64,000 bases of DNA, taken from NCBI GenBank assembly GCA_963758525.1, contig CAVWVQ010000003.1, positions 3,040,001-3,104,000 on the forward strand, given 5' to 3'. The notes under the pieces were generated by a model. That model was not told the DNA's origin, made no database searches, and saw only the letters and a program-made list of their open reading frames with translations. Position numbers and translations under genes: made by a program. Positions 11,496 to 34,123 of this stretch are shown in pieces (the stretch's first letter is position 1; every line of letters starts with the position of its first letter). Origin of the DNA: an uncultured Phycisphaerales bacterium. Lineage in GTDB: Bacteria > Planctomycetota > Phycisphaerae > Tepidisphaerales > Tepidisphaeraceae.

Positions 11496-12002
11496 TCATT
11501 GGGAAGACGGCATCACCTGAACCAACTTCCGGGTCGATCCGTCAGGGCAGACGGTCCTCTGCGCCTTCTCGTATTCCTTTGCCGTATTCGGCGTCAGCTT
11601 GATCCAGGCAGCGACGCCGGGTCGCTTCACCATCTCATGAAGTTCAACCCTTACGTATCCACGGCGTTCCAACGGCGCGCTTGCAATCTTCTGCCTGTCG
11701 TCCTCGTCGTATCCGGCGAGATAGCTCACAAAAGGCTTCCCATCATCGCATCGATAGACCTCGACGCGATACGCTAGCTTGCCGTTATGATCGAAGGGTG
11801 GAACATTGCCGGCATCGTCCTCGAACCATGTCTTTCCATCATCGTCGGAATAAAAGTCCTTCGCGGTGATGGACGGAAGATTCGCGCCGCTGTGGGAGAG
11901 TTGGCGCCAGATCAGCAGGACGCCGATCACAATCAGCGCGGCGGCGACAATCACCGCGGATGTCCCGTTTTTTGAAAGCAGTCTCCGGATATCCATCGCC
12001 AT
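11496..12002 (-). CDS. Small single-TM protein, prepilin partner copy 1
   Basis: N-terminal TM; FYSDDDGKTWF, VPPFDHNG, CDDG, VKRPG, CPDG shared with ORFs at 29201 and 33632. Confidence 0.85.
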   Translation of the reverse strand: MAMDIRRLLSKNGTSAVIVAAALIVIGVLLIWRQLSHSGANLPSITAKDFYSDDDGKTWFEDDAGNVPPFDHNGKLAYRVEVYRCDDGKPFVSYLAGYDEDDRQKIASAPLERRGYVRVELHEMVKRPGVAAWIKLTPNTAKEYEKAQRTVCPDGSTRKLVQVMPSSQ

Positions 12003-12050
12003 ATTCCCATAACCCAGGATCTGATTTGAATGGAATGATCAGCGTGTCCG

Positions 12051-12995
12051 TCAGGGTAATGTGTCTGGCAGTTCGTTCGTGCCGTACGGGATTCGGTTGT
12101 TGCCGAAAGAGCGTATTCCATAGTTGTTCGCGAAGTCGTAGTTCGCGGACTGGACCATGATGGACTGCTTGAATGGATTCAGTCCGTCGGCCTTTGTCTC
12201 CAAAAAGTCGATGGCTGCGCACGCCTCCCAGACCTGATTGTAACCGTTCGTACCCCAATTGCTCTGGATGTATTGGTACAACTCCCTGCTCTCGACAAAC
12301 TCGACGTGGCCGTCAGTGAAACCCATGTTCCACCCTGCTGATCCAGAGTTGTTCGTGTGAGTGATCGAGTCAGGCCACCAGATGCTGTCGATCACAAGTG
12401 CCCTGTTTCTGGGGAAGGCACTCAACTTTGTAAAGCGTGTTGCGCTGCCATTGGGTCCTGCCCGGAGGTGCGGATTATAAAAGTAACTGGAGACCGCGTT
12501 TGCAGGGGAAGCGGTTGCGCCGGATTGAGTGGAAGGACACCAAAGCCACGGCACATTGGTGTTTGCGCCGTCCACCACCCAGCCGCCGCTTAGATAGCCG
12601 AGCGACACCAACCGGCCAATATTAGCAGTGGTGATGTGCTGCGCCGCGTGGTTATCGTAGTTGTATGAATTGTACCAAGCCCAGGTCTGCGTCCCCAGAG
12701 AACCGATGTCGCCCCAGCCATTGAAGTTGGGGCCTTCCGGACTCGCTTCATTTCGCCATCGCTCAGGCAACCCGCCCTTGTAGTCCAGCGCGTAAGTGAG
12801 GCTGGCCGTTACGATCTGGCGCAAATTGCTTGCACAGGTGATCTGTTGCGCGCTGCGCCGCGCATTGGATAGCGCCGGAAGAAGAATAGAGATGAGCAGC
12901 GCGATGATTCCAATGACGAAAAGCAGTTCGACCAGCGTAAATCCGGTTCGGGATGGTTTTCCGGGTGAAAAACTGAGTCTGCCATCGGCTTTCAT
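12051..12995 (-). CDS. Prepilin-type N-methylation protein (DUF1559/H-X9-DG type)
   Basis: [38 protein letters not shown]-terminal H...NMGFTDGHV. Confidence 0.92.
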
Positions 12996-13040
12996 AAAAC
13001 CTCCAGTTCAAGTCATGTCGCTGGCGCATCTTCGCATTCA

Positions 13041-14693
13041 TCAGGGCGTTAGGCGACTAGTTGTCTTCAAAACGGCGTCGGCCAGCATTGTTCCTTCCAT
13101 CAGGCCCCGCCCCGCTTCGGTGATGGCAACGGTGAGGAACCGGTCATCGGGCCGCAGCGCCGCCTCGATCGGAAATGCGCCGTTCACACTCGAGAACGTC
13201 TTCTGGAAGCGCGCTTGGCCATCGACGATGAGGTACAAATTCCCCCTCGGCTGTTTTGAAGCCTCCGGGAAAATGCTGCTTACCAGGCAATGGAAGCTCG
13301 CCAGTGCAATACCTGGGTGCAATCGGCGAATCGCCGCCAGATCCAGGGTCAGGCCGCGGTTGGTAACCATGTAAAGCACGCTGTGCTCCGGGCCGGCGTA
13401 TCGATTCAGCAGCGGCGCGCTCTTGCCCGACAGCGACGGAATGCGCCCGCCGGTACAGATGTTCTGCACGCTCCTGTTGCTGGTGCTGCGGAATGCGAAC
13501 GTATGCAAAGCCGAATCGACCTGTACCGGCCCGTGAGTTCCGTCAGGAATGAAACACCCATCAAGGATCGGCGTGCCGGTGATCCGGTGATAGATGTTGT
13601 CGCCCGCGACATCCCCCACCTGCTCGAACACCCCCACGTGACCCATCGAATCGATGTCCATTCCGCGCCGCCGGGTGGTGCCGTCGCCGCCCGAGATCAG
13701 GTCGACAACGTCCAACGTGGTCGGCTCATCACTCAAATTTCGGACGAATCGTTGCGGCTGCACACCGGCGGGATCGATCTTCAAATCGGTCCCCGTTGCA
13801 TTGGCAGCCTGACCTTCAGTCAGCACCAGAGTGGCTGACGAATTGCCAATTCGCGGCTCAACGCGCACACTTCCCTTGAAGACCTCGATCGCGTCGGATC
13901 CGTCGGCGCTGACCTCCACGCCAAATTCCGTACCCAGATCGACGACTCGCGTGATAGCTGTTTCAACTGCGAAACCGACAGCGGCGGGCGGCACTTTCGC
14001 CGTAAGCTGACCTGCAGTCAGCTCGACAGCGTTGGCGGCCCGGACTTGGAACCGCGCCGGCGCCTCAACGACCATCGTGGCGCCGGTGTCGAATTTGATC
14101 TCGGCGACACCGCTTTCCAGAACCAGCGGCGTTGCGGGCAGTCGTTGGTCCGCCTGAAGCGCGCCGGTCGTGCCGCTCCATTGTGCATTGACACTTGATG
14201 CGACGGTCGCGAAGGAGCGCGGCCGGGCAATCTGCCAATAAATCGCAAGACCAGCCAGCAGTGGGATCATGATCGAGGCGGCCCAGAGCCAGCGGGATCG
14301 AAGGATGCGAAGTGATCGTGCCGGCGGCACGATAACGGTAGCCGCCGGCAGCGCCGACTGAGTTTCGTCACGTTCGGGCTCAGGATTCAGCGCCGGTAGA
14401 ATCATCGACTCATTGAAATCAACACGTCGCGGCCATTCCGGCAAGTCATCTAGCTTGGTTTGGTCCCCCGCGGGGCCACTGCCGGTGCTGGCGCCTTCCG
14501 AAACCGCTTCAATCAGGGCCGACCCGGTGAGACATAATCGAACAAATGCCGCGCGCTTGGCGGGATCTGTTCTGAGCTGCGCCTGGAGCTTCTCAACGCC
14601 ATCCGTGCCAAGTTCGCCCTCCAGGTAGCAAAGCGACAAGCGCAGGAACTCGGGGTCTGCTTCCGAGAGACGGGCGGGGGGCTGTTTAGACAT
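13041..14693 (-). CDS. FecR-family anti-sigma factor with C-terminal NPCBM/NEW2-like domain
   Basis: N-terminal anti-sigma helix, TM, FecR core (VVDLGTEFGV, EVFKGSV), C-terminal LDLAAIR...DRFLTVAITE; overlaps the sigma stop codon. Confidence 0.88.
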   Translation of the reverse strand: MSKQPPARLSEADPEFLRLSLCYLEGELGTDGVEKLQAQLRTDPAKRAAFVRLCLTGSALIEAVSEGASTGSGPAGDQTKLDDLPEWPRRVDFNESMILPALNPEPERDETQSALPAATVIVPPARSLRILRSRWLWAASIMIPLLAGLAIYWQIARPRSFATVASSVNAQWSGTTGALQADQRLPATPLVLESGVAEIKFDTGATMVVEAPARFQVRAANAVELTAGQLTAKVPPAAVGFAVETAITRVVDLGTEFGVEVSADGSDAIEVFKGSVRVEPRIGNSSATLVLTEGQAANATGTDLKIDPAGVQPQRFVRNLSDEPTTLDVVDLISGGDGTTRRRGMDIDSMGHVGVFEQVGDVAGDNIYHRITGTPILDGCFIPDGTHGPVQVDSALHTFAFRSTSNRSVQNICTGGRIPSLSGKSAPLLNRYAGPEHSVLYMVTNRGLTLDLAAIRRLHPGIALASFHCLVSSIFPEASKQPRGNLYLIVDGQARFQKTFSSVNGAFPIEAALRPDDRFLTVAITEAGRGLMEGTMLADAVLKTTSRLTP

Positions 14694-15210
14694 GCTCTCC
14701 ACCTTTCAGTGCGATCTGTCTGGAAACGCAATCAGCCAGCACCGCGTAAATCCGGCTGAATGTCGTGTAGAGACTCACCACCGGGCGATTTAACTCCTTT
14801 GCCAGATCGGCGTACTTGGCCTTTTCAGTATATCGTCGGTGGATGAGGCCACGCGCGTTGGGAGGGAGTCTGTCCACGCACCGCCGCATGGCGGCGGCCA
14901 TCAGCTCACTGTCGTCCTGATCGTGTCCCTCCCATTCCACTTCCAGGGCTTCCATGAGATCGTCGTCGAGCGAAAGATGGCGCTGCCCCTGTTGGCGAAG
15001 CACGTTCAACGCCCGCAGTCGGGCCGCGGTCCGCAGCCAGTTGAGAAAATGTCCCTCATCGCGAATGCTGTCGCGCTTTTCGATCGCCAGCACGCAGATG
15101 TCCTGAAAGACGTCCTCCGCCAGCTCGTAGCGCCGGACCATCGACCGGATAAAGGCCAGGACCTTCACCCGCTCGGAAACCAGAAGTCGAACTAGCTGGT
15201 CCTCTTTCAT
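14686..15210 (-). CDS. ECF sigma-70 factor (divergon 1)
   Basis: AEDVFQD, FLNWLRTAAR (region 2); CVDRLPPNARGLI...LADCV (region 4). An upstream TTG start (15252) is possible. Confidence 0.92.
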   Translation of the reverse strand: MKEDQLVRLLVSERVKVLAFIRSMVRRYELAEDVFQDICVLAIEKRDSIRDEGHFLNWLRTAARLRALNVLRQQGQRHLSLDDDLMEALEVEWEGHDQDDSELMAAAMRRCVDRLPPNARGLIHRRYTEKAKYADLAKELNRPVVSLYTTFSRIYAVLADCVSRQIALKGGEHV

Positions 15211-15264
15211 CGTGGGCGCATGTGAAGGGCCATTCGAGACGGAACGCAACAACCCCTATCAGTA

Positions 15265-15292
15265 GACTGTCGCAGGCCGGCAAATCAAAACA
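15265..15292 (-). promoter_or_regulatory. Candidate ECF promoter motif A upstream of sigma 1
   Basis: Minus strand TGTTttGaTTTgcCGGCcTGCGACAGTC; 22/28 ungapped match to 15513-15540. Confidence 0.6.
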
Positions 15293-15345
15293 CCAGAGCG
15301 GATTTTTGTGGGCGTGCGCGAATATCCGGAGGGATGCCATTTGAC

Positions 15346-15415
15346 TCTGTAGCCGGGGGCGCTGACCCCGGAATTCTCCTCCACGATGTTCCGGCGTCAG
15401 CGTCGCCGCTACAGA
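15346..15415. repeat. Imperfect GTAG-class REP doublet
   Basis: tctgtagccgggggcgctgaccccgg ... ccggcgtcagcgtcgccgctacaga. Confidence 0.6.
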
Positions 15416-15512
15416 AGAGGGATTCAACCCCGGTTCACCGGAAAAACGCGCACGCCCATAGCGTCGCAGTTCCTCTATGTTCTCACGGTTTGAAAGGGGT
15501 TCCTCTTTTTTT

Positions 15513-15540
15513 TGTTGAGTTTTTACGGCATGCGACAGTC
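15513..15540 (+). promoter_or_regulatory. Candidate ECF promoter motif A upstream of PEP-CTERM gene 1
   Basis: TGTTgaGtTTTtaCGGCaTGCGACAGTC, divergent partner of 15265-15292. Confidence 0.6.
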
Positions 15541-15598
15541 ATCAATAGGAGGCGGTCTGACACCGTGTCGGAGAACGTTCTGAGCAGGCCCCTGGGCG

Positions 15599-15637
15599 TG
15601 TGACAGTTTGGCCATGCCGCGCAGATATCCCATTGAA
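15599..15637 (+). promoter_or_regulatory. Candidate ECF promoter motif B upstream of PEP-CTERM gene 1
   Basis: tgtgacagtttggccatgccgcgcagatatcccattgaa, 36/39 identical to 38242-38280. Confidence 0.6.
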
Positions 15638-15787
15638 GGCCAGAGGTGGCGGATCTCGGTCCGTATGGAGCGCGGAGCATTAGACGTAACGACACCGCGC
15701 CCGTGGCCGGCAGGTGAGCGGCTGGAACGCCCGCACAAGACGGAATGGATGCGCCTGCCTTATGGCGGGGCGACTGGAGAGAGGATC

Positions 15788-18700
15788 ATGACGAATAATC
15801 GCGCAGCTTCGATATCTGCAACCCGCATATCTCCCAAATCACGGAGTCACCGGCAATTAGAAGTCCGACGCCGGCGACTGACTCGCGCTTGTGCGGCCGT
15901 TCTTACCGCTGTCGGAGCGACGGCTGCCTTCAGTCCCGCGATTTGGGCTGCAAATACGGCTTACACAATTCCGGCAGGTTCTTCCGGTAACTTCAGCGCG
16001 GTCACACTCACACCTTCGGGGACGCCCGGCCAGGGCGACCTGTTGATGGATTCGGCAGCCACCACTCCAGCAAGCTTCACTTTGACGCTAGATGAGAACC
16101 TTACCGTCGGCACAATCAAGTTAAACGCTAGCGGCGGCCACACCGGCACTTTCACCTCGGACGGCACGCACGTTTTCACGCTGGACAACACTGGCGGTAC
16201 CGCTACAAACATCTTCGGCGATACGAACGCCTCCATCGGCGAAAACGCCAACTCCGGTGTGTTGACGGTCGGGCCCAACATCGTGATTGCCAACACGAAC
16301 CTCGACATTGGTTCCCCACAGAAGGGTACCGTCTCGATCACCGGGAATATCACTGCATCGACGGCGCAAACTCTCAATCTGGAAAACAACCAGACAACGG
16401 GCACCACAACAATTGACGCAATCTCCGGAAATATTGGGGCATCCGGCAGCGCCATTGCCATCGTTGATGCCTCCACCGGTAGCTCCTTTGCAAATTTCAA
16501 CCTCACCACCGGCACCATCGGCGGTGCCTCTGGAACCGGGGCGGCTGTCACCATCACCAACCAGGCCACCGGCGCTTCGCCGTTCGCTATCTCTTCCACG
16601 CTCGGTGCCACGGTGTCGAGCATCACGCAAAACAGCACCAACTCGATCATGACCATTTCTGGAACCAACTCCAGCTTCACCGGCACGACGAGCATCCAGG
16701 CAGGTACGCTGACCCTGGGCAGCACCACGGCACTGGGGAATTCGGCCGTGAAGTTAGCCAACACAAGCGGTGCGACCCTCAACCTGACCTCTTCCACGAC
16801 GATCGGTTCGCTCGCGGGCGGCGGCACGACGGGGGGAAACGTGACCCTGAATGCGAATACTCTGTCGGTGGGCAGCAACAACACCAGTACATCCTACGCC
16901 GGCGTGATCTCGGGAACCGGCGGCCTGACCAAGATCGGTTCTGGTGTGTTGACACTTACCGGCGCGAACAGTTATCCAGGCTCGACAACGGTAAACGCGG
17001 GCACGCTGAAGCTCGACTTCACCGCTTCGGGCGCACCGACGACCAATATCATCAATAACACCCCCCTGAACCTCGGCGGCGGCACGTTAAGCGTGGTCGG
17101 AAATAGCGCCTCCAGCACTCAGTCGTTCGGGAGCTGGGCGGTCGCAGCAGGAGCTTCCACGATCTCGGCCACCGGCTCGGCCTCGGTTTCGTTGGCGACG
17201 ATCACGCTCACGGCTGGGGCCGGTGTAGTCTTTAGCGGCCCACTTACCACTACTTATGCAACTAATGGGTCCGGCGTCATCACTCCCACAACTGTCAATG
17301 CAACCGGTACCATTACCACCAGCTCGACCGGCCTAACTGCTGCAGTAGCGTCCGGCGGAGGACTTCTCGCGGGCGGTAATAACACGAACAACTATGCAAC
17401 CGTCGGGCTCTATGATTGGGCCTCCACGGACACGGCCGCCGGCGCTGCGGGGAGCACGATTATCGGAGGCTCGCAAGTCAGCGGGTTTTATACAGTTCCT
17501 GGAAACAATGCAGGGAATACCTTTACAACCCCGAACTTGGATATCGCTACGCAACAAGCTCCAACGCTCAACGGGACGAGTGATGTTCGAATCAGTGGTG
17601 GCAATGCAGTGGTTGACTCAATCCGGTTTAATAGCGGACATGCGCCGTATATTACGGTGAGTAACACTCTTGCCACCGGTGGCGTTTTAGTGACGCCCAA
17701 TATGGGTCAGGTGAATGCCGGCATCGACCAGATACGACTGAACGGCGCAGTGAGTACTCAAATCGTGCAGAACAATACCTTGGGCGTATTCGTGCTGGGG
17801 CTGAACGGCAAATCAGACTTCGCCACTGGAAACGCCGGTGATTCGGTGGTGATCTCGGGTTCCGGCGCGGTATTCCTGAATCCCGTCGCGGGGACGGGCA
17901 TCAAATTCAATTATCTCAGTTCAAGTGGTGTGCTGACAAATTCCAGTTCGGGCGTCTACGACTCGGCCCAAATCAACAGCGCGGCGCAGGGACCAACTTA
18001 TATCAATGGCGGCGTCACGGTGATCAATACTGGCGCCGCGCTCTCCAATCCGGCCACCGTTGGAACAACGGGGGGTAGCGTAGGTTCAGTCAATCTGAAT
18101 GGAGGCACACTTATGGGTGCCATTAATAGTTTCAGCCTCATCAGCGCAGGAACAAATGTTGGCAACCGAGCAGTGTTCCTGGGGAGCAATGGTGGTGGAC
18201 TAGCGGCGCAATTCGGCACTACTCTGACGATTCCTGGCGTAATCAGCGGAGCCGCGGGCAGCGGACCGCTCACAATTGGTATTGCCGGCTCCACGGCGAA
18301 CGGCAATGTGGCTGGTTTGGTACCAGGCACCGGAACTGGCACGGCTAACCCGGCGTTTAGCGCCACCGGAACCGTCCTATTGAACAACGCGAATACGTTT
18401 GCAGGTGGTACAACGATCATGACCGGCACACTGCGGACGGCCAACGCGAGCACTCTGGGAAGCGGAACTGTTGCAATCAACAGCACAGCCACCCTGGCAG
18501 TCGGCGCCGATGCCAGCACGGTCGGGAATCTCACAACCGGTGGCCAGACATGGAATACCGGCGGCACGTACACAGCGAAAATTGTTGCAGCCGGGACCGG
18601 CTCCAGCGGCACGCCGACCGCGCAGGCTGGTGGCACGAATTGGGACTTGATCAATATGTCCGGGCTGACGGTCGCATCGACCAATGGCAGCCCCTTCACG

Positions 18701-19078
18701 ATCACGTTGACCGCTCCCAGCGCGACAGGTGGTTTCACAAAGACACTGAATTATGACTGGGTGATTGCCAGCGTGGGAAGTGCGTCGGGGATCTCCAATG
18801 GGACCCTCGCCACAGCCAGCAACACCGGCAATCCCGGGACGTCCGGATTGTTCACCCTGGACACCAGCAACTTCGTCACCGCAAACGGCGGCTCGTTTCC
18901 GATCGCATCGAGCTTCTCGCTCCAGCTTGATGGCCTCAGCGGAAGCCAAACGTTGGATGTCGTCTACAATGCTACCCCCGAGCCCGGGACAGCACTGCTG
19001 GTTCTCGGCGGAGCGCTACCGATGATCTTGGGTCGTCGACGACGAGCAAAACGGATCGAGAACGCAGCAAATGCGTGA
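15788..19078 (+). CDS. PEP-CTERM surface protein 1 with autotransporter-associated beta-strand repeats
   Basis: ATG at 15788 after GGAGAGAGG; long Arg-rich signal; GGLTKIGSGVLTLTGANSY repeats; C-terminal ATPEPGTALLVLGGALPMILGRRRR. Confidence 0.92.
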   Translation: MTNNRAASISATRISPKSRSHRQLEVRRRRLTRACAAVLTAVGATAAFSPAIWAANTAYTIPAGSSGNFSAVTLTPSGTPGQGDLLMDSAATTPASFTLTLDENLTVGTIKLNASGGHTGTFTSDGTHVFTLDNTGGTATNIFGDTNASIGENANSGVLTVGPNIVIANTNLDIGSPQKGTVSITGNITASTAQTLNLENNQTTGTTTIDAISGNIGASGSAIAIVDASTGSSFANFNLTTGTIGGASGTGAAVTITNQATGASPFAISSTLGATVSSITQNSTNSIMTISGTNSSFTGTTSIQAGTLTLGSTTALGNSAVKLANTSGATLNLTSSTTIGSLAGGGTTGGNVTLNANTLSVGSNNTSTSYAGVISGTGGLTKIGSGVLTLTGANSYPGSTTVNAGTLKLDFTASGAPTTNIINNTPLNLGGGTLSVVGNSASSTQSFGSWAVAAGASTISATGSASVSLATITLTAGAGVVFSGPLTTTYATNGSGVITPTTVNATGTITTSSTGLTAAVASGGGLLAGGNNTNNYATVGLYDWASTDTAAGAAGSTIIGGSQVSGFYTVPGNNAGNTFTTPNLDIATQQAPTLNGTSDVRISGGNAVVDSIRFNSGHAPYITVSNTLATGGVLVTPNMGQVNAGIDQIRLNGAVSTQIVQNNTLGVFVLGLNGKSDFATGNAGDSVVISGSGAVFLNPVAGTGIKFNYLSSSGVLTNSSSGVYDSAQINSAAQGPTYINGGVTVINTGAALSNPATVGTTGGSVGSVNLNGGTLMGAINSFSLISAGTNVGNRAVFLGSNGGGLAAQFGTTLTIPGVISGAAGSGPLTIGIAGSTANGNVAGLVPGTGTGTANPAFSATGTVLLNNANTFAGGTTIMTGTLRTANASTLGSGTVAINSTATLAVGADASTVGNLTTGGQTWNTGGTYTAKIVAAGTGSSGTPTAQAGGTNWDLINMSGLTVASTNGSPFTITLTAPSATGGFTKTLNYDWVIASVGSASGISNGTLATASNTGNPGTSGLFTLDTSNFVTANGGSFPIASSFSLQLDGLSGSQTLDVVYNATPEPGTALLVLGGALPMILGRRRRAKRIENAANA

Positions 19079-19125
19079 CCGATGCTAGACGCAAAGATCG
19101 TCAGGGTGCGTGACGCCGCATTGAA

Positions 19126-22222: not shown

Positions 22223-22232
22223 GTCACCTGAT

Positions 22233-22333: not shown

Positions 22334-22410
22334 TGCGCCGGTGTCCATTGGTCGCGTACCAAGACAAGCTCGCGAGGGGCCTGGGGATTGATCGCGGCGA
22401 GGAAGGGAAC

Positions 22411-23778: not shown

Positions 23779-23927
23779 TCTGGGTATAGGGGACAAAGTA
23801 ACCTCAATTCGCAGGATCGGGTCTCCCTCTCGTGCAACATAATGCCGCCTGCTCCGCGGCTCGGCGTCTGGCGCGACATACGCTACGCTTCGACTGCAAC
23901 TGCATCAGCCGCGAATCGTTCTCCTAT

Positions 23928-26624
23928 TCAGTGCCGGACCGAAAATTCGTACGCGCCAGAGCCTACTTCATAGACTGCGCACCCATTTTCCATGTGCACG
24001 AATTGAAGACCGGGCACGGCGCCGGTTGCCTTGCCACTTTCCGTGACTGACCCCGGTTCCACGGCCGGGACATAAATTCTCGCAGTTGTGTTGGGCGGAA
24101 TGGTTACGGCCATCGTCAGGCGATCGCCCGACCGCCTCCATTCACTGGAGATCATGCCTCGCGCGGATTCGTAGCGCGCCTTCGCCCATATGACGTCGCC
24201 AACGGGGGTGGGTCGGATGATAATCTTCTTGAAGGCGATGGAGGCCGGATCACAACGGATGCCGGCAAGGTCGCTGTAAAACCATTCCATGATGTGCCCA
24301 AGCATAAAGTGATCCTGAGACGCGCTCCCGTCCCATCCTTCAGTGAGCGCCGTGGCGCCAGTCTTAATGATGTATCCGTAGCCGGGGCGGTCGGAACGAT
24401 TGTTCAGGTCGAAGATGACATCGGAGCGGCCGCCGTCGGCCAGGGCCTTGAGGAGGTATCGATATCCGACGTCTCCAGCGGTCAGACGGTTGTCGTGTGC
24501 GCGGATCCCCTCCACAAGATTTTGGAGGATTGCGGCCCGATCTTCCTCTGGCGCCAAGCCCATGACCAGCGGAAGAGCGTTGGCCGTCTGGCTGCCCGTG
24601 GCGTAGCTGTGAGTATCGGGATGATAGAGGGACCGGTTGAACGCCTCGCGCACTTTGCCGGCAAGATTGTGATATGCCTCCGCCTCATCGGCCTTGCCCA
24701 GGAGCCTGGCCGTCTGCTCGAGAACCGTCAGGTCGCGGTAGTAAAACGCGGTGGCGGTGAGTGATGTCGGCGTCAACTGGGCATTCCCCGGGCGCTTCGG
24801 ACCCAGATCGAACCAATCGCCCAGCCCCTGGCTGACGAGATGCTCTTTGGCTGTGGAGCCGAGGTAGGCGACGTATCGCTGCATGGTCGGGTACTGCTCG
24901 CGGAGCACCTGGGCGTCGCCGTACCATTGGTAAAGCTGCCAGGGCAGAAGAACAGCGGCGCTGCCCCATTCGGGGGAATCGCGGAAGCCGCCGGAAAAGA
25001 CCACGTATTCCGGCGCGATGTCGGGAACCAGCCCGTTGTCGAGCTGGGCGTCGGCCATGTCCCGGCAGATTTTCGCCGTCAGCGCCGGGATTGAGAAGTT
25101 GTACATGAGCGACGGCCCGGCGAGGTGATCCTGCTCGAGCCAGCCGAGTCGCTCGCGGTGCGGGCAGTCAGTGAGAATACTCATCATGTTGCTGCGCATC
25201 GCCCAGCGGATCAGCGTGTTGGTGCGATTGAACAGCTCGTTGGAGCAAGTGAATTCACCGGCCTCTGGCGAGGTGCTGGAGATGAAATCGCCTTCGACCG
25301 CCTGCGGCTGCACCCCTTCACACTGGAGATAGCGGCAGCCGTAATAGCTGAACCGTGGCGACCACGACTGCGCCTCGCCGCTGCCCAGCGTGTACTGGAA
25401 ATACGCCGGCCCGCCCCCGGAGCTTCCCTGGCTGACCGTACCATCCTTCTTGAGCAACTCGCCGGGAGTGATCTTGACGATTTGCCCTGCGGAGCCGCTG
25501 ACCACGACGTGCGGGATAACGGCGCAATTCTGACCCAGATCGTACACCCAGACGCCCGGCCTCCGCTGCTTGATGAGCTGCCCCTTGAAGACCTGCATCA
25601 CCCGGATTGGCGGAGCCGAATGACTGGTTCCCAGGAGCGTTCCGCCCGGCCCGGTCGTTTCCACGGCCGGCTTCCAGTCGGTATCGTCAAAACCGGGCGC
25701 GTCCCAACCCGGCTGCTCGCGCCGTGCATCGAAGTCCTCACCGCCATAAATGCCGGAGAACGTGATCGGGCCAGGCGCCCACTTCCATGATCGATCGCTG
25801 ATGAGCCGATCGTGGCTGCCATCGGCGTAATCGATCTCGATCTGCGCAATCAGCCTGGGCGGTCCAAAGCTTCCCTTGAATTTCGTGTAGCGCGGCCCCC
25901 CGACGTTATACATCCCGTTGCCGAGCATCACGCCCAGAACGTTGCGGCCCTGTTTCAGTTGCGGCCCGATCTCGTAAGTAATGTAGAGGCAGGTCTTGCG
26001 GTAATTCGTCCAGCCCGGCTCCAGGAGGTCATCGCCGACCTTGTGCCCGTTGAGATGCAGTTCCTGCTGCCCCAATCCGCACAGATAAACCAGCGCACGA
26101 TTCACCGGCTTGTGAACCTCGAATGAGAGCCGGAAGATCGGCAACGCAGCGGCCTGTCCGGGCTTTGTGCTGCCTTGCTCCTGCGCACCGATCCACGTTG
26201 CCTTCCAGTCATCCGCCCCCAAAAGCCCCATCGTCCAGTGGCCGGCGTCGCTTAGGGATGACCGGCCGTCCTTGTCGAACACGCGCACCGTCCAATAGCA
26301 CGCCTGGCCGGAAACAAGCGCTTTACCCGCGTATTCGACTTGAGTCTCATCCGAAGCGACATTGCCGCTGTCCCAGAGGTCGGGCGGTTGGGCGGTGAGG
26401 CCCTCCCGGCTGCTGGCGACAAGAATTTGATAAGCGGTCTGGCGCTGACCGCGCGTCTCGCTGGCCAGCTCCCAACTGAGCCGCGGGCGAGGATTGTCGA
26501 TGCCCAGGGGCGCGTCCCGGAATTCGCATCGCGTTTGTGCAACGCTCAGCGCTGCTGAAGCTTGCGTCCGCGGCGAAAACGTCAGCAGCAATACAACGGC
26601 AAGCAGCTTGATTGGCATTTTCAT
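23928..26624 (-). CDS. Alpha-L-rhamnosidase (GH78)
   Basis: PLGIDNPRPRLSW, QTAYQILVAS, LWDSG, TDCPHRERLGW, LTEGW, DHFMLG; ATG overlaps the upstream TGA (ATGA). Confidence 0.93.
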   Translation of the reverse strand: MKMPIKLLAVVLLLTFSPRTQASAALSVAQTRCEFRDAPLGIDNPRPRLSWELASETRGQRQTAYQILVASSREGLTAQPPDLWDSGNVASDETQVEYAGKALVSGQACYWTVRVFDKDGRSSLSDAGHWTMGLLGADDWKATWIGAQEQGSTKPGQAAALPIFRLSFEVHKPVNRALVYLCGLGQQELHLNGHKVGDDLLEPGWTNYRKTCLYITYEIGPQLKQGRNVLGVMLGNGMYNVGGPRYTKFKGSFGPPRLIAQIEIDYADGSHDRLISDRSWKWAPGPITFSGIYGGEDFDARREQPGWDAPGFDDTDWKPAVETTGPGGTLLGTSHSAPPIRVMQVFKGQLIKQRRPGVWVYDLGQNCAVIPHVVVSGSAGQIVKITPGELLKKDGTVSQGSSGGGPAYFQYTLGSGEAQSWSPRFSYYGCRYLQCEGVQPQAVEGDFISSTSPEAGEFTCSNELFNRTNTLIRWAMRSNMMSILTDCPHRERLGWLEQDHLAGPSLMYNFSIPALTAKICRDMADAQLDNGLVPDIAPEYVVFSGGFRDSPEWGSAAVLLPWQLYQWYGDAQVLREQYPTMQRYVAYLGSTAKEHLVSQGLGDWFDLGPKRPGNAQLTPTSLTATAFYYRDLTVLEQTARLLGKADEAEAYHNLAGKVREAFNRSLYHPDTHSYATGSQTANALPLVMGLAPEEDRAAILQNLVEGIRAHDNRLTAGDVGYRYLLKALADGGRSDVIFDLNNRSDRPGYGYIIKTGATALTEGWDGSASQDHFMLGHIMEWFYSDLAGIRCDPASIAFKKIIIRPTPVGDVIWAKARYESARGMISSEWRRSGDRLTMAVTIPPNTTARIYVPAVEPGSVTESGKATGAVPGLQFVHMENGCAVYEVGSGAYEFSVRH

Positions 26625-29086
26625 GGAGGGCTTACCAGTAGCTCCCGTTGTTCGATCAGCTCGGCGCTGACCTGGTCGACCGAGGAAGTTGCCTTCGCTT
26701 TGGCCACCGCATCGAGAGCTTGCGGCGGCAGGCGGGAGCCCAGAGCTTCGGAATAAGGGAGGATTTTCAACCGGATCGCGGACCACTGTTCGGCGGGAAT
26801 GCGCCACAGAGCGATGGAAAATGGATCGCCGTTATAAAAATTATCGTCGCAGAGCTTGTCCGCGACATAGAGCCGTGCGGCATCGCCGATGTAGTGGATT
26901 CTCAGAATCTCCCGTCGCCCGGAGGAGGCGGGGAGATTCAATTGATAAACGGCAGCGGCGTTCCAAGTGGCGTCATCCATGCCCTTCAGAGCCGTCGCGG
27001 CCGGTCCTGCGGGTCGTTGCCGGCTGAGGGTGACCGCGCGCTTCTCGGGCTGGTCAAGTCCATCCAGCGCGAAGCGGGTGAAAAGGCCGTCGGCGTGGCC
27101 ATCAAGCTTGGCGTTGCCGACCTTGATGCTGGCAAGGGCTGGGAACAACGCGAGATCAGCATTTTTGGCGTCCATCGCTTGCAAGCGAAGCTGTTTGCCG
27201 TCCGGCATGATCGTCTGGTCAAAGAGCACGGCACGGTCACGCCCCGCAAACGGAAGGCGATAAAACTCCCTGGCCTGCTCCGCGGAGAGGATCACGAAAT
27301 TGACGGACCCGCCATTCGCGGCAGCAACGCTTACGGCACGGTTCAGGCCGGGCGCGATGTGCTGGATGACGATGTGCCCAGGCAGGTTTTCCTTTTGCCC
27401 GGAATCGACGGTAACGGTCGAGGGATCGGCCGCGAGTGAGATTTCCGCCGGAATGCCGTCGAGCGCGGCGAAGAAATACCAGACCGCGTTCCCGTCCTGT
27501 AAACGGCACAATGGCTGGGCCGTGGCGTAATCGAGCTTCACGCCGTCGCAATCGAGGTTTATGGGCCAGATGCCGTAACTGCCGTTGGCGATGGCAATCG
27601 GCTGGCTCGGCACGGTTTGGGTTCCTTCCGCGGTTTTGAGCGCGAATTGGACGGCGGGATGATCCGGCAGAGGGACGGTTGGCTGGCGGTTATTGAAGAA
27701 CAGGAACCCGCTTTGGCCGTCCCAGCGGATGCACCAGCGCAGTGTGTCGAAATCCTCCAAATCCTTTGGACGGGCGTCAGGATATACAGGGACCGCGCGG
27801 GCGAGGGCCGGGCCGAAATCATGGAGAAAAAGATGTTGCTCGCGAAGGAGGTGATACTGCTGGCGCACCTCGCCGCAGGCTCCCAGCGGCGCCTGAAAAT
27901 CATAATCCTTGAACGGCATCGCGTTGGGTTTCTGTTCATTGAGGCTGGAGAGCTTGGCGTCCGGATTGTTGCCGCCCTGAAACATGTAGTATCCCTGCAT
28001 GTTGCATCCCGAGCCAAGTTTGACCAGGGCCATGGCGGCGATGTCGTCGGGGATGATTTTGATCCTGCGGACGTAGCTGGACATCATCCCGCCGCCGATT
28101 TCGCAGCAGGCATAGGGGAATAAGGCAATGGTTTTCGAGCGGTCGACGCGCTTGGTCTGCATTTGAGCGCCCATCTCGCCGTCGCGGCTGTCGGAGAAGA
28201 CAAAACCCTTGCGATAATCTTCCAGCGTGCCGCCCCAGAAGCCGACGGAGTATGCGCCGAAGAGTGGGAGCAGATCCTGCCTGGGAATGTCCACGCCGTT
28301 CCAGCCGGTCATGGTGTAGAAGGGGACGTCCACGCCGTCCTCCTGCGCCATTTTTTTCAGGGCGAAGAGATAGCGCAGGCTGCCGCACTCGTTGTCCATC
28401 TGCACGCCGATGACCGGGCCGCCATCTTTCCAGAGGAGGCCTTTCATTTGCCCGGCGGTCTGCTGATAAAAGGGCGCGACGAGGCGCAAGAACGCAGGAT
28501 CGGCGGTCCGCAATTTGGTACCGGACTTTTGCACCCAATCGGGGAAGCCACCGTTGCGGGCTTCGCCGTGACACCACGGCCCCATGCGGACGATGGCGAG
28601 CAAGCCGACATCGTGGCAGAGTTTCAAAAAATCGCGGAGCGACTTCCGTCCGCTCCAGTCGAAGCGGCCTTGCTCCTCCTCCTGGTGAATCCAGAAGACA
28701 TAAGTGGAAACGACCGTGATGCCGCCCGCCTTCATTTTCAGCAGTTCGTCCCGCCACTCATCGGCGGGATAACGGGTGTGGTGAAACTCGCCGACGACGG
28801 GAATCAACCGCTGGCCGTCCAGAAGCAGCGACCGATTGTCGGCGGCCAGGATGTGTCCCTCCGGACTCTTGTTTGCGCCCTGGCCGAGATTAACCGGCGC
28901 AGCGGCGGGCACCTCCGACGGAAGCTCGATGGTCAACGGCTCGGCGTGCGCTGGCGCCTGCGTGAAGATGAGCAGTACGGCCAGAAGACAGGCGGCGGCT
29001 CTTGCGGAGAGATCGGTCGCCCGATATGTCCGCGACTCGGACTCGAGCAGTTCCGCGATATGTTCTTGCGATTTTGCTATTGTCAT
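26621..29086 (-). CDS. Beta-galactosidase (GH35)
   Basis: GEFHHTR, STYVFWIHQE, RMGPWCHGEARNGGFPDW, VIGVQMDNE, CEIGGG, YYMFQGG, YDFQAPLG. Start codon uncertain. Confidence 0.9.
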   Translation of the reverse strand: MTIAKSQEHIAELLESESRTYRATDLSARAAACLLAVLLIFTQAPAHAEPLTIELPSEVPAAAPVNLGQGANKSPEGHILAADNRSLLLDGQRLIPVVGEFHHTRYPADEWRDELLKMKAGGITVVSTYVFWIHQEEEQGRFDWSGRKSLRDFLKLCHDVGLLAIVRMGPWCHGEARNGGFPDWVQKSGTKLRTADPAFLRLVAPFYQQTAGQMKGLLWKDGGPVIGVQMDNECGSLRYLFALKKMAQEDGVDVPFYTMTGWNGVDIPRQDLLPLFGAYSVGFWGGTLEDYRKGFVFSDSRDGEMGAQMQTKRVDRSKTIALFPYACCEIGGGMMSSYVRRIKIIPDDIAAMALVKLGSGCNMQGYYMFQGGNNPDAKLSSLNEQKPNAMPFKDYDFQAPLGACGEVRQQYHLLREQHLFLHDFGPALARAVPVYPDARPKDLEDFDTLRWCIRWDGQSGFLFFNNRQPTVPLPDHPAVQFALKTAEGTQTVPSQPIAIANGSYGIWPINLDCDGVKLDYATAQPLCRLQDGNAVWYFFAALDGIPAEISLAADPSTVTVDSGQKENLPGHIVIQHIAPGLNRAVSVAAANGGSVNFVILSAEQAREFYRLPFAGRDRAVLFDQTIMPDGKQLRLQAMDAKNADLALFPALASIKVGNAKLDGHADGLFTRFALDGLDQPEKRAVTLSRQRPAGPAATALKGMDDATWNAAAVYQLNLPASSGRREILRIHYIGDAARLYVADKLCDDNFYNGDPFSIALWRIPAEQWSAIRLKILPYSEALGSRLPPQALDAVAKAKATSSVDQVSAELIEQRELLVSPP

Positions 29087-29200
29087 CCTGGCACCATTCG
29101 AACCTGCGGCGGCACAAAGCATTCGCTGATCTCCTGCTCCCTCACTCGTCCGGCAGTCGAGCCAGACCTCCTTTACCTGAGGAGGGTATAGGGGACGTTT

Positions 29201-29653
29201 TCACGGATAGACCGGGCGGGCGTCACTTCCATCCGGGCACTTGGGCCGCTCGATGGCTGCGGCCTTTGGATCCGATTCCGATATCCATTTCCCGTCGCCG
29301 GGCCTTTTGACCAAGCCAATGACGATCAAACCAAACGAATGTGGGGCTTCCAGTTGCCTCTTCGCTTCACCGCTGTATTTCTGGAGATATTGCACAAACT
29401 TCTGATTCCGGCCATCGCAGGTGAATACGACGGTGCGCACCGCCTGAGTGCCGTCATGATCGAAGGGAGGCACCTTTTTACTCTCATCGGAAAAGAGGGT
29501 CGCGCCGTCATCGGCGGTATAGAAACTCAACTGTTTTGGTATCGATGGTTCGGAAGTGCGCATGTAACTCCATAGCACGACGAGCGCGACCACGCTGAGC
29601 GATGCCAAGATCGAGACCCCCTGATGCCGGTTCAACCGTTCACGAAGTCCCAT
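29201..29653 (-). CDS. Small single-TM protein, prepilin partner copy 2
   Basis: FYTADDGATLF, VPPFDHDG, CDG, VKRPG, CPDG; starts 6 nt after the prepilin stop. Confidence 0.85.
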   Translation of the reverse strand: MGLRERLNRHQGVSILASLSVVALVVLWSYMRTSEPSIPKQLSFYTADDGATLFSDESKKVPPFDHDGTQAVRTVVFTCDGRNQKFVQYLQKYSGEAKRQLEAPHSFGLIVIGLVKRPGDGKWISESDPKAAAIERPKCPDGSDARPVYP

Positions 29654-29658
29654 GGCAA

Positions 29659-30738
29659 TCACCAATACCACATCTCAAAAAATTTCCAGGTTCCCTCGTG
29701 AATGACCGCCGGAAATCCCTTTGGCAGCGGAAGCGATTGCGGATAACCAATGACGGGCACAGATGCCGCCCAGGGAGGCGACGCCCCGCCGGGGTTATCC
29801 ATTCCGGGGTTCAAAAGCGTTACGCCGCTCAGGTCTATCCACTCGCCGTGACCGTCGCTGAACACTTCATTCACTCCGTCCGTCTTGGGATTGCCGTAGG
29901 TGCCGGGGGAGATATGTACGCCATGATTGGCGATAAAGCCGCTCTGGTAATGCCACGCCACCTTGTCCGCAAACAGGGGCATCGGCGGCGAATCGCTGAC
30001 GCGAACGGGCAATACATCACGAACGAAGGACGGCTGGTTATTCGTCTGGTGGGTCGGAGTCTGGAATACCGCGGAGAAGCCGAGGCCATTGCCGCAGTAG
30101 GCGTAGGACGATTCGATCAAATACGGCGAGCGAGTCTGAAGGTTGGCCGGGAAGGTGTAACCGGGGAATGACCCCCCGTACTGAGCGTTCGGCCAGTGCG
30201 ATACGACTGCCGGGCTTCCCAAGGTGGAGATGGACGATAACGCACTGGGGCATACCCACGTCGAGTCGATTGGGGTGCCGTTGGGCGCGCCGGCCGAATT
30301 CAGAACGTCGGCAAAACCAAATGCGGTATACATCTCATCGGTGACGAATTGGGGATTGAGGTGGGGTCCCACCGACAGATCCTCCACACACAACGGGAAA
30401 TGGCCCTTATATTGGTTGGCGTACATGATCGCCAACTGACCCAGCGAGCGAAGGTTGGCGGCACACGCCGTCCTTCTGGCCATTTCCCTGGCCTTGGACA
30501 GTGCTGGCAGCAAGAGGCCAATCAGCACCGCAATGATGGCAATAACGACCAGGAGTTCTACGAGAGTAAAACCGTGCCGGGGCGAGGCACCGAGGCGCAA
30601 AGGCGCCCGCCGCGGCGGGTAAACCGCGGCACGAATGAAGAAGCGTTCGCGTCGGCTCACTGCGGGCAATTCGACAAGCTTAATGGCTCGTGGGCTGAAT
30701 CGCCGCAAGGCCGAAACTCGGGTTCGAACATGGCACAT
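29659..30738 (-). CDS. Prepilin-type N-methylation protein (DUF1559/H-X9-DG type) with extended leader
   Basis: [52 protein letters not shown] upstream. Confidence 0.92.
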
Positions 30739-30835
30739 TTGTCAGACTCCTGCGTGCGGGCCGAATCGGATCTCATCCACATCCGGTCTCTTCCACCTGT
30801 TTCCGTCCGGGGACTGTGGCCGCACACTCACGGCC

Positions 30836-33620
30836 TCAATTGGCGGCTTTATTGTCGGCGACTGCTGATTCAAAGCTGAAATGGCCGGAGGTTGCCGAAA
30901 AGACGGCCGTTCCACCTTCACTTCGAAGCAGTTGGACCCCTTTTGCCGCGGTGGCGGCCATGCCACTCTCACGCACTGAACCACTGTCCGTCGTCGGAAT
31001 ATAAATCACAGCTGAGGTGTTGGCCGGAATCGTGACGTCGAGATTAAAACGCGAACCCTCGACGCTCCATGACGACTCGATCGGTCCACGCACCGAGTCA
31101 TAGCGGGCCGCTGCATGCTTCAATCCAGCCGGTGGAACCGGCTTGATCCGAATCTCCTCGTAACCGGGCTTCAGCGCCGAGATGCCGGCAACGCTGTCGT
31201 ACAGCCAGGCGAGTATGCCGGCGTACATGTCATGGTTGTGACTGCGGGTCTTTTCATACTTCCAGTCTTCGGCAATCGTGGTAGCGCCCTGATTGATCAT
31301 ATACGTATAACTCGGCGAGGATGTCTGCATGATCATGGTCTGTACAAGATCATTCTCTCCCGCCTCGCCAAGCGCCTGCCAGACCGCGGAGACTCCTATG
31401 TCGCCGGCCGTGATGTGGTCCGCCAATACCGGGCCAAACTCACCGGGGCGGCCGACGCTCGGCGAACCGTTTGCTCGTGGATGCACAATCCCAGCGACCA
31501 GGGCTTGGCGCACACCGGCGATCGAGTTTTCCGGAACAATGTCAAAATACAGGGGCAAAGCTTCATCGGCCTGGTTGATCGGCACATACGCTTGCGCCTC
31601 TACGTCGAAGTGCGCTTTCTGGTACGCGGCCCGCACGCGCTCAAAATCCTGGCGAAATCGTTTCGCGTCATCACTCTTGCCGAGCACCGCCGCGATTTCG
31701 GCCATCAACCGCGTATCGAAAACGTAGACAGCGCCCTCCACATTGGCCACCGAGTTGCCTGCCGGCGCCATCCAGTCGCCCAGTCCGTATTTGATCAATC
31801 CGTCGGATTCCTTGGTTTTAAGGTACGCCATGTACCTCTTCATCGTCTCATATTGGTCCGCAAGAATTTTTGCGTCGCCGTAGGCTTGGTAAAGCGCCCA
31901 AGGCGAGATGATTGCCGATGATCCCCAGCACGGCGCGTCATCGTATTTGTCGCCGGGGGGAGTATGAATGGTGTAGAACCATTGAGGCGCGATGTTAGGA
32001 CACAGCCCTCCGACTCGTTGCGCATCCCGGACGTCGCGCATGATCTTCGTAAACAGTGTCTGCTCGTCCCAGCAATAGAGAGAAGATGGGAGCGTGGTCC
32101 ACACCACCTCCTGCCAGCCAAGCCGTTCGTAATTCGGGCCATCCGTATGAATCGATCCGGTGTTGCTGAGGATGGTCTGCTTTGCAAGATCGTGAATCTG
32201 AACGTAGCGAGCGTCCGAGGCCTCAAATGTACTGACATCGCGGGCCGCGGTGCAGACAAAGAACGCGGTGACGTCGGTGACCACAGGGAGTGTTCCGCCC
32301 AGTTCTTTGGTCGTTGCATTTCGAAGCTCGACGTAGCGAAACCCTGTCGAATTGAACTGCAGTCCCCACGTTTCCGGGCCGCCGCCTTTCAAGGTGTATT
32401 CTGATTTTTCCGCCCGGCCGCCGTTCACGCGGCCTTTGGCGTTGAGACATTCGCCCGGCTGAATCTCCACCGTCGCGCCGGCGTCTCCATCGACGGTGAT
32501 CTGGAATTGCCCGCTCATGTTTTGCCCAAAATCGTATACACAAATGCCGGATGCGGGGTGAGTCACCTTCTGAGCGGCGAAAGTCTGCCGCGCCACGATT
32601 GGCGGAGCATTCTGCGACACAAGCACCCCCGGCGCCGGCTCGGCGACTGCCGCGTTGACCCATTTGGCATCATCAAAACCCGGCGATGTCCACCCCAACT
32701 GCTCGAGACGGGCGTCGTATTTCTCGGAACCGTGGATCTCCGAGTGAATCAACGGGCTTGCCGCGACCTTCCATGACGGGTCACTGACAATATCCTGGCT
32801 CGTGCCATCGTCAAAAATCGCGTGCAACTGGGCACGCAGTCGCATCGGGCCGAAGTTGCGCGTACCTAGACGATCAAGTTTGTCCCCCAGCCATCCGTTG
32901 GCGAGCATGACGCCGATGGCATTCGCGCCCTCGCGAACCTGACCCGTCACGTCGAAGGTCACATAATCAATCGTGCGATCGTAATCGGTCCACGCCGGGT
33001 CCATGACATGATTGCCGACCTTCGTGCCGTTAATGAATGATACAAACTGGCCCAGGCCGCTGATGTAAAGGAACGCCTGTTTGACGGGCTTTCTTACTTG
33101 AAACACTTTGCGAAAAATCGATGGAGGACTGGACGCGGTCAGGCTCGATTTCGCTGGGGGGGGTTTGATCCACATGATTCCCGCCGCCCAATCGTCCGCC
33201 GTGAAAAATGAGGTAACGAAACGCTTTGGTGAACTCGGTGGAGATGGCTGATCGTTGCCGTCCCAGATTCTCACTGTCCACCAATAGGAACTGGTTTTCG
33301 CCAGAGGGGTGCCCGCGTACTCGACGCCATACTCGCGTGACGAGGCGACCTTGCCGCTGTCCCACACAATTCCCTTGCCATCGGTCAAGCCGCTCTCGTT
33401 CGACGCCACAACAATCTCATAGGCTGATTGTTTCGCCCCGCGCCGGGTCGGTGCCAATCCACCCGAATCGCGGCTTTCGAGTGTCGATGCCAAGCTGTTC
33501 AAAGTTATCGATAACGCGCGTTTCGCCAGGCGGCGACGGCGCCGCGTTGCAGGGGAGTTTAATGAGACCGATTACCGCGCTAATGAAGAGACCAGCGGTT
33601 GCGATACGATTGCTCTGCAT
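30836..33620 (-). CDS. Alpha-L-rhamnosidase (GH78), frameshifted near 33440
   Basis: Signal MQSNRIAT...LGIDTRKPRFGW in one frame; KQSAYEIVVAS, VWDSGKV, TDGPNYERLGW, SHNHDMY in the 30836..33502 frame. Confidence 0.88.
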
Positions 33621-33631
33621 GGTTGGGGCAA

Positions 33632-34123
33632 TCAAGGAAACACCTGTTCCGGCGGCTTGGATGCCGAGGCGTCGGGACATTTCGCGTTCATGAGAGCCTT
33701 GGCGCCGGGGTCGCTCGGATGCACCCATTCAGTCGCGCCCGGTGCCTTCACGAGAAGGCCATCCATCGGACCTGGACCGCCGTCGGCGACAGGCGCCTTC
33801 CCCTCTACCTGCTGCTTGGCCAGATCGGTGTATTTTTCGACATACTGGACCCAACGATTTCGACCGCCGTCGCAGGAAAAGACATACGCGCGCACTGCCG
33901 GTTTTCCGTCGTGGTCGAAGGGCGGCACCAGAGTCATCGCATCTACGAACAGTGTTGCACCGTCATCGCAAGTATAGAACGACTGTGTCTGGACGTGCGG
34001 CAGTTCAGGACGCCCGCCTTGCATCAGAGTTCGTGATGATCCGTATATCGCAACCATAATGGCAATGACGACCACACCTCCGCAAAGATAGGGACGACTA
34101 TTCAATAGGCTGCGGACTTCCAT
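33632..34123 (-). CDS. Small single-TM protein, prepilin partner copy 3
   Basis: GGAGG RBS before MEVRSLL; FYTCDDGATLF, VPPFDHDG, CDGG, VKAPG, CPD. Confidence 0.85.
   Translation of the reverse strand: MEVRSLLNSRPYLCGGVVVIAIMVAIYGSSRTLMQGGRPELPHVQTQSFYTCDDGATLFVDAMTLVPPFDHDGKPAVRAYVFSCDGGRNRWVQYVEKYTDLAKQQVEGKAPVADGGPGPMDGLLVKAPGATEWVHPSDPGAKALMNAKCPDASASKPPEQVFP

Follow-up and report, generated by a model that had tools for sequence, protein, structure and literature searches.

Three small open reading frames (ORFs) in a stretch of planctomycete DNA, each directly behind a gene for a prepilin-type protein, belong to an unannotated protein family without a recognisable fold that we rate as a candidate pilin-associated accessory protein. 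The stretch (the window, 64,000 nucleotides (nt) in length) spans positions 3,040,001 to 3,104,000 of contig CAVWVQ010000003.1, from assembly GCA_963758525.1 of an uncultured Phycisphaerales bacterium of the Tepidisphaeraceae. FAM is our working name for the unnamed family of these three ORFs, which we refer to as FAM 1, FAM 2 and FAM 3 (Table 1). In the reading we favour, to which we assign a probability of roughly 45%, FAM is a membrane-anchored partner of pilin-like proteins, predicted to bind them and amplified within glycan-utilisation operons.

The link to prepilin genes is tightest in the window itself. All three FAM genes are encoded on the minus strand (read on the plus strand, these coordinates are riddled with stop codons), and gaps of 48, 5 and 58 nt separate the stop of the prepilin gene from the start of FAM 1, 2 and 3, respectively, on the same strand. 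A custom hidden Markov model (HMM) of the prepilin N-terminus found exactly three prepilin ORFs in the window, each upstream of FAM. The genome as a whole (6.47 Mb, 6 contigs) holds 27 full-length copies and 2 fragments. With adjacency defined as a gap of -60 to 300 nt between crude ORF calls, and with our own prepilin HMM, 20 of the 27 copies lie directly behind a prepilin ORF and a further 3 lie behind a split or truncated pilin gene (23 in all); the remainder comprise one copy in tandem behind another and three true exceptions. The prepilin motif is present in about 74 of the genome's roughly 5900 genes, against which 20 of 27 is far above chance (rough binomial 8e-33); this value overstates the case because the copies, being products of duplication, are not independent. 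Twelve of the 74 prepilin ORFs lie in ordinary pilin arrays, and an all-against-all BLAST of this genome revealed no other small family behind the remaining prepilin genes.

Some of these loci are damaged. One FAM copy carries an in-frame TAG (C3:686726-687211), and two others are short fragments (C3:2688238-2688339 and C3:5029732-5029923). Upstream of FAM, prepilin genes are split into two ORFs at C2:176949-177991 and C3:3871414-3874211 and truncated at C3:1834506-1835186. These defects point to turnover of the module, or to assembly errors.

Beyond this genome, species representatives hold 66 FAM copies, of which 19 lie behind a prepilin gene and 3 behind another copy. Metagenome contigs yielded 87 full-length copies on 80 loci, 45 of them scorable and 42 not; among the scorable copies, 26 are behind a prepilin gene, 3 are in tandem and 16 stand alone with at least 1100 nt of upstream sequence. 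An earlier note on this DNA had described the family as always directly downstream of a prepilin gene, which is true of the window (3 of 3) and nearly so of the genome (20-23 of 27) but does not extend to the family at large (19/66; 26/45). On the FAM tree, copies that stand alone and copies linked to pilins fall into clusters (0 of 500 shuffles gave as low a count), yet their labels change at least 4-7 times.

Where the two genes are paired, they have diverged in concert. Distances between pilin heads correlate with distances between their FAM neighbours across 37 pairs (Mantel r 0.34), and also within the 19 pairs of this genome (r 0.49) and the 18 from other genomes (r 0.63), with 0 of 5000 permutations as high in all three tests; the nearest neighbour is concordant in 13 of the 37 pairs. 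The Mantel test and alignment A3 both exclude two pairs whose pilin ORFs have poorly defined limits, and alignment A3 also excludes the four LamG-type pilins. These four form one group, as do their FAM partners. Overall, pilin and FAM genes have been duplicated and retained together over long divergence, to as little as about 30-45% identity, with changing genes on either side, and the pairing has repeatedly been made and broken.

The three FAM proteins of the window share 34% identity with the first copy and 40 invariant alignment columns, which include every motif on which the earlier note had based their homology. A search of Pfam and NCBIfam returned no family at E <= 0.01, and, tried as a PilN, FAM gave no match to PF05137 at E <= 10. 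Named database relatives are all called "hypothetical protein", none with a recorded Pfam domain, and in the ESM Atlas the only matches are "hypothetical protein" clusters of Planctomycetota. When the FAM profile was searched against 1.84 billion cluster representatives (50% identity), 2510 representatives matched at E <= 0.001, of which 1661 reached E <= 1e-10 and 776 reached E <= 1e-30, so that the family is large as well as unannotated. Relatives were placed in the Tepidisphaeraceae/Tepidisphaerales, class Phycisphaerae, phylum Planctomycetota. In our sample of the class, FAM occurs in 18 of 20 genomes from the family to which the window belongs and in 17/20, 3/4, 2/7, 2/7 and 1/14 genomes of five other families, and was detected in 0 of 78 genomes of fifteen further families. 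A count of 24 genomes of the same family found it in 23, mostly in 1-2 copies with a maximum of 7; four weak or truncated matches (G021:C81, G037:C113, G022:C208 and G017:C23) were left out. Of 7998 candidates scored, only 3 are longer, fused proteins; their partners all differ, and we read them as gene-calling accidents.

FAM proteins begin with the consensus M-G-I-R-E-x-[LI]-N-x-x-P, in which R, N and P are conserved at 92%, 73% and 62%, respectively (198 sequences). An AlphaFold2 model of FAM 1, built from a 43-row alignment (mean pLDDT 90.7, pTM 0.72), places a hydrophobic helix at residues 13-36, followed by a domain of about 115 amino acids (aa) with five to seven strands and three helices; this single helix is predicted to anchor FAM in the inner membrane. 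The motif FYSDDDGKTWF contains one BNR/Asp-box (S-x-D-x-G-x-T-W, residues 52-59) on a predicted beta-hairpin, and is well conserved over residues 51-60 (YSDDDGKTWF; G 100%, D 97-98%, T 88% in the 198 sequences). PF02012 matched weakly at this site in 40 of 43 members (best E 0.004), with P0001 at 15.4 bits, below the gathering cut-off of 27 bits. Each protein has only one Asp-box, rather than the multiple repeats of a propeller, and no propeller chain was matched. The Asp-box is described (PMC2716378) as a structural hairpin present in several unrelated folds, and therefore names a motif and not a function. The statement that FAM falls in no named family accordingly holds for Pfam and NCBIfam, with the qualification that the FY[ST]xDDGxTxF signature is itself a single BNR/Asp-box. 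Further near-invariant residues are PPFDHxGK, VKKPGxxxW and CPDG, and residues ~98-125 form a variable segment. Two cysteines, C85 and C152, covary (both present in 153, neither in 32 and only one in 6 of 191 sequences), a pattern that fits the periplasmic disulfide previously suggested for them.

The modelled domain resembles no solved structure that we could recognise. Foldseek found no match in the PDB at E <= 0.001 (best E 0.64). VIA-align, run against 48,161 PDB representatives, returned 6 chains at Z >= 2, the best being OspA at Z 2.9 (55 residues aligned, root-mean-square deviation 3.4), and re-examination of 807 Foldseek-ranked chains gave none at Z >= 2; these values lie well under the tool's typical level for unmatched models. 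Matches by sequence to PDB entries are confined to 10-residue sialidase Asp-boxes. The searches by structure (Foldseek, VIA-align) and by profile (Pfam, NCBIfam) gave no match to a characterised family; the domain appears to lack a recognisable solved fold, and a missing match is no proof of a new one.

About 23 pilin-FAM pairs have multiplied together in this Tepidisphaeraceae genome, in operons with extracytoplasmic function (ECF) sigma/FecR, LacI or AraC regulators, giant PATR-repeat proteins and glycan-degrading enzymes. One type of cluster runs from ECF sigma factor and FecR through pilin and FAM to glycoside hydrolases, with sigma and/or FecR genes at 7 loci. In another, a giant PATR-repeat protein and a 2-hydroxyacid dehydrogenase-like protein precede pilin and FAM, and enzymes or a transporter follow. 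The constant neighbour of FAM is the gene upstream; the gene downstream varies or is absent, and may encode a glycoside hydrolase (GH) of family GH2, GH35 or GH78, an esterase, a DUF7133/ThuA protein, a GSDH protein, an SSF transporter or another pilin. At 5 FAM loci a 2-Hacid_dh_C protein of the D-2-hydroxyacid dehydrogenase type (351-414 aa) is encoded directly upstream of the prepilin gene (examples from this genome: L098:2602-3675, L107:8716-9960, L109:9310-10365, L110:2261-3331 and L111:4392-5507), and a giant PATR-repeat protein (659-1699 aa) is part of the cluster at 10. This is an odd, recurrent operon design.

In the model we propose, FAM would sit in the inner membrane with its N-terminus inside and its C-terminus outside, beside the N-terminal helix of the pilin. 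The predicted topology (helix 13-36, a domain with pLDDT > 90 and the cysteine pair) would fit such a partner of pilins. The invariant face (Asp-box, PFDHxGK and VKKPGxxxW) would bind something common to all partners, such as the conserved pilin stem or the assembly machine, while the variable helical segment (~98-125) would match the head of the cognate pilin and the N-terminal peptide could dock on a cytoplasmic part of the machine, as PilN does on PilM. In this role FAM would keep in place, present or dock a pilin-like subunit that is specific for a substrate and belongs to a fibre for glycan capture or secretion. Most relatives have one copy, standing alone, which would serve many pilins in trans, and in this genome dedicated copies would have been amplified together with sugar-specific pilin-like genes. 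A bolder version, which we consider quite unlikely as a whole, is that the pilin-like protein and FAM make up a modular, substrate-specific glycan-capture unit of Planctomycetota that corresponds in function to SusC/SusD. A given sugar operon would supply its own head for the polysaccharide-binding fibres observed on planctomycetes and its own inner-membrane FAM adapter of new fold, which would load or dock the head on a shared pilus or secretion machine through the N-terminal peptide, and the stand-alone copy would be the ancestral general adapter.

Several observations weigh against FAM as a partner of pilins. In the species representatives, 44 of 66 copies stand alone with no adjoining pilin gene, and relatives with 1-2 FAM copies carry 25-120 N_methyl/prepilin motifs. 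Stand-alone copies are often convergent with an HldE-like housekeeping gene (6 loci checked). In this genome FAM is the next gene after only 19 of the 74 prepilin ORFs (~19-23), and FAM-linked and unlinked pilins interleave on the pilin tree, with close relatives both ways and 12 label changes, at least 6 of them forced by well-supported branches. The adjacency counts and Mantel correlations partly reflect a shared history of duplication and not interaction, and residues conserved across FAM paralogs cannot explain specificity for different pilin heads. A predicted complex of pilin 1 (residues 8-303) and FAM 1, each supplied with its alignment, scored ipSAE 0.12 and 0.03 (mark 0.32, no controls), values that count neither for nor against binding. 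The AlphaFold2 model of pilin 1 is poor (pLDDT 64.3), confident only in the N-terminal helix and a small sheet. The proposal of a dedicated pilin factor thus retains its non-random link to prepilin genes and loses any claim to be needed by every pilin, because of the stand-alone copies, the 25-120 motifs in relatives and the existence of pilins both with and without FAM.

The HldE-like gene noted above encodes a PfkB kinase joined to a cytidylyltransferase and lies tail to tail with FAM, for example at L057:1419-2930, L059:3675-5156 and L069:3536-5020. The HldE-like gene of the window's genome (C3:2339905-2341461) has no FAM copy beside it.

The size and predicted bitopic layout of FAM match those of PilN, PilO and GspM, and FAM could instead be a general part of a pilus or type II secretion (T2S)-like machine, its N-terminal peptide on a PilM/GspL-type protein, its outer domain in the periplasm and the pilin-side copies specialised duplicates. 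One conserved, usually stand-alone copy in 23 of 24 genomes of the family would suit such a part, as would the strong conservation of the extreme N-terminus, where [LI]-N-x-x-P resembles the INLLP peptide by which PilN binds PilM. The genome encodes pilin assembly machines, with at least four GspE/PilB-type ATPases, and has four PilM-like genes but one clear PilN (PF05137 match at C3:4126293). That PilN, however, already adjoins a PilM and an ATPase, whereas no FAM gene adjoins ATPase or platform genes at the loci examined. Moreover, FAM matches no PilN, PilO or GspM HMM, and its model appears to lack the ferredoxin-like fold, no such chain being among the 6 matches at Z >= 2 from the 48,161 chains (best Z 2.9), where a missing match is no proof of a different fold. 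We regard a general machine part as unlikely.

The pairs are found in catabolic operons with regulators of their own, ECF/FecR at 7 loci and LacI or AraC elsewhere, which suggests another explanation, in which FAM acts independently in the glycan loci, for instance as a small membrane-anchored module for binding or sensing that works with FecR or with uptake, and its adjacency to pilins results only from block copying. Pilins and FAM separate often in evolution, the gene order at C3:2681784 is sigma, FecR, FAM, pilin, and the conserved FAM surface is aromatic and polar (W59, F60, F70, D71, H72, K75 and W137), as are sugar-binding sites. PMC2716378 describes the Asp-box as typical of glycosidase propellers, but also as a structural hairpin and not a binding site. 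The same conserved residues, however, are shared by loci that handle different sugars and by stand-alone copies next to housekeeping genes, and therefore cannot read the substrate of the locus; sigma or FecR genes are found at only 7 FAM loci; and the constant neighbour is the upstream gene, not the enzymes. An independent role in the glycan loci thus strikes us as improbable. A role in tethering or escorting the downstream enzyme, such as that of a membrane anchor or export helper for a glycoside hydrolase, would agree with the window, where a GH gene begins 78-129 nt after each FAM copy; elsewhere, however, the downstream gene is a transporter, an oxidoreductase, another pilin or an opposite-strand gene, or there is none, and stand-alone copies lack such an enzyme neighbour. 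This we hold to be very improbable.

Table 1. Genes of the three window cassettes, with coordinates in the window, and lipoprotein loci of planctomycete genome G171 (compared with FAM at the end of the text), with locus coordinates.
Feature	Coordinates	Strand	Description
FAM copy 1	11496-12002	-	168 aa; N-terminal peptide, membrane helix, Asp-box domain
FAM copy 2	29201-29653	-	150 aa, starts MGLRERLN
FAM copy 3	33632-34123	-	163 aa, starts MEVRSLLN
Prepilin-type gene 1	12051-12995	-	N_methyl and DUF1559/SBP_bac_10 head; GFTLVELL at residues 19-26
Prepilin-type gene 2	29659-30738	-	N_methyl; weak DUF1559
Prepilin-type gene 3	34182-35477	-	N_methyl and Laminin_G_3 head
GH2 beta-galactosidase-like gene	8823-11411	-	84 nt downstream of FAM 1
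FecR-type anti-sigma factor	13041-14702	-	upstream of prepilin gene 1
ECF sigma factor (TIGR02989 type)	14686-15252	-	heads cassette 1
GH35 gene	26621-29122	-	downstream of FAM 2
GH78 alpha-L-rhamnosidase gene	23928-26807	-	next in cassette 2
GH63/MGH1-like glycoside hydrolase gene	22411-23796	-	last gene of cassette 2
GH78 alpha-L-rhamnosidase gene	30836-33502	-	downstream of FAM 3
FecR-type anti-sigma factor, C-terminal NPCBM carbohydrate-binding domain	35521-37173	-	upstream of prepilin gene 3
G171 lipoprotein	L145:2546-2998		
G171 lipoprotein	L157:872-1363		
G171 lipoprotein	L158:2507-2968		
G171 lipoprotein	L156:868-1329		
G171 lipoprotein	L152:789-1307		
G171 lipoprotein	L133:2334-2819		
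G171 lipoprotein	L148:980-1690		

Some of these boundaries can be refined. FAM 1 probably starts at the ATG at 11996, giving 166 aa, because the family consensus start is M-G/D-I-R and a database copy, P0004 (166 aa), is 100% identical. Prepilin gene 1 matches DUF1559/SBP_bac_10 (PF07596) at 24.2 bits, above the cut-off of 23.3, and prepilin gene 2 falls below the same cut-off at 18.6 bits. Prepilin gene 3 matches Laminin_G_3 at 27.9 bits (cut-off 27.6) and gave no DUF1559 match. The prepilin motif begins only at ORF residue 55 in prepilin gene 2 and near ORF residue 100 in prepilin gene 3; the true start is therefore probably downstream of 30738 in gene 2, and likewise downstream of the ORF start in gene 3.

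A shared leader of ~70-124 nt is found in the regions upstream of prepilin genes 2 and 3 (window positions 30629-30752 and 35332-35454; 76% identity to each other), and also precedes a third FAM-linked prepilin gene elsewhere in the genome (C3:4930164-4930267). It holds decayed prepilin 5´ coding sequence (...GGTTTnACGCTTGTCGAGCTGCC..., in frame '..KLVELPAVS..'), and may either record recombination at the conserved 5´ end of pilin genes or have a regulatory role. Short GC-rich repeats (35-60 nt) immediately 5´ of prepilin coding regions 2 and 3 (window ~30585-30635 and 35191-35252) have dozens of genomic matches at 80-97% identity, some of them tandem arrays in an 8-nt register, such as C3:1223299-1223366. 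On the opposite strand, two very long ORFs flank the cassettes, at 38409-44051 (+, 1880 aa) and 15608-19078 (+, 1156 aa), and by analogy may encode giant surface proteins of the PATR type. A scan of the window found no terminator-like sites within the pilin/FAM/GH intergenic gaps, promoter and terminator scans of the window gave counts at or below the shuffled expectation, and an Rfam search of the window gave no match. A look for sequencing runs turned up no RNA data, and two DNA runs contained 0.11-0.15 of the sampled words.

These pairs bear on how planctomycetes capture large sugars. In planctomycetes, dextran binds to pili-like fibres, and whole polysaccharides are thought to be taken up (PMC5394234); a 2025 review describes the mechanisms and players of polysaccharide uptake as still unknown (PMC12673574); pilin-FAM pairs are therefore testable candidates. 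Planctomycete gene clusters for carbohydrate-active enzymes (CAZymes) are functionally uncharacterised, with about one third of their genes unassigned (PMC11131199), and DUF1559 pilin-like proteins are described as the largest paralog family of P. limnophila, without known function (PMC10632474). Full-text searches, whose coverage excludes subscription journals, found no literature on FAM or on any DUF1559 partner, and the CAZyme papers on Phycisphaerae or Planctomycetota that we examined do not mention pilins. In this soil planctomycete, our analysis finds pilin-like genes within regulated operons for glycoside hydrolases, together with a new and very common family of likely partners. The pairs yield candidate genes for polysaccharide capture that could help to explain how large sugars are captured, and offer defined cognate and non-cognate combinations, as well as a domain without recognisable fold that is worth solving. 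If FAM is only a general envelope protein, less would be gained, namely a name for the family and a better annotation of thousands of 'hypothetical proteins'.

The closest resemblances to FAM lie in layout and organisation. PilN, PilO and GspM share with it a length of ~160-200 aa, a short cytoplasmic N-terminus, one membrane helix, a periplasmic domain and a link to pilin systems, but FAM has no HMM similarity to them and its predicted fold matches none of their structures; FAM genes, moreover, lie behind a pilin gene or alone, whereas those proteins are encoded in pilMNOPQ or gsp clusters. With the sialidase-type propellers of the BNR/Asp-box group (PF02012), FAM has in common the S-x-D-x-G-x-T-W motif and its modelled hairpin, but differs in having a single motif, a 10-residue match below the Pfam cut-off, in a non-propeller domain of ~115 aa. 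The SusC/SusD systems in polysaccharide utilisation loci of Bacteroidota resemble pilin-FAM in organisation only, as a paralogous pair of envelope genes in sugar-specific, sigma/anti-sigma-regulated enzyme operons; there is no homology, and a pilin-like protein with a small predicted inner-membrane protein contrasts with an outer-membrane barrel and a lipoprotein lid. In the archaeal "bindosome" of Sulfolobus, sugar-binding proteins carry pilin-type signal peptides. The likeness here lies in pilin-type N-termini on sugar-uptake proteins, and the Pfam name for DUF1559 is SBP_bac_10; the bindosome, however, is archaeal and its small helpers are pilin-like, whereas FAM has no prepilin motif (no N_methyl (PF07963) or TIGR02532 match), unlike the genes upstream of it.

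A parallel comes from another planctomycete, G171 (44 DUF1559 matches), where the gene behind 7 of 29 prepilin ORFs encodes a small lipoprotein of another family (Table 1), with the lipobox LSGCGG and weak CarboxypepD_reg/transthyretin-like matches (best E 8e-6, below the cut-off). Like FAM, these are small envelope proteins (~150-170 aa) present in many copies and encoded directly downstream of DUF1559 prepilin genes; unlike FAM, they have a lipobox in place of a membrane helix and Pfam matches that point to a beta-sandwich, and the two sequences are unrelated (hhalign probability 0.2). Because the slot behind DUF1559 genes is filled in G171 by an unrelated lipoprotein, the comparison suggests that a pilin-like gene with a small envelope partner may be a general, recurring design in the phylum.

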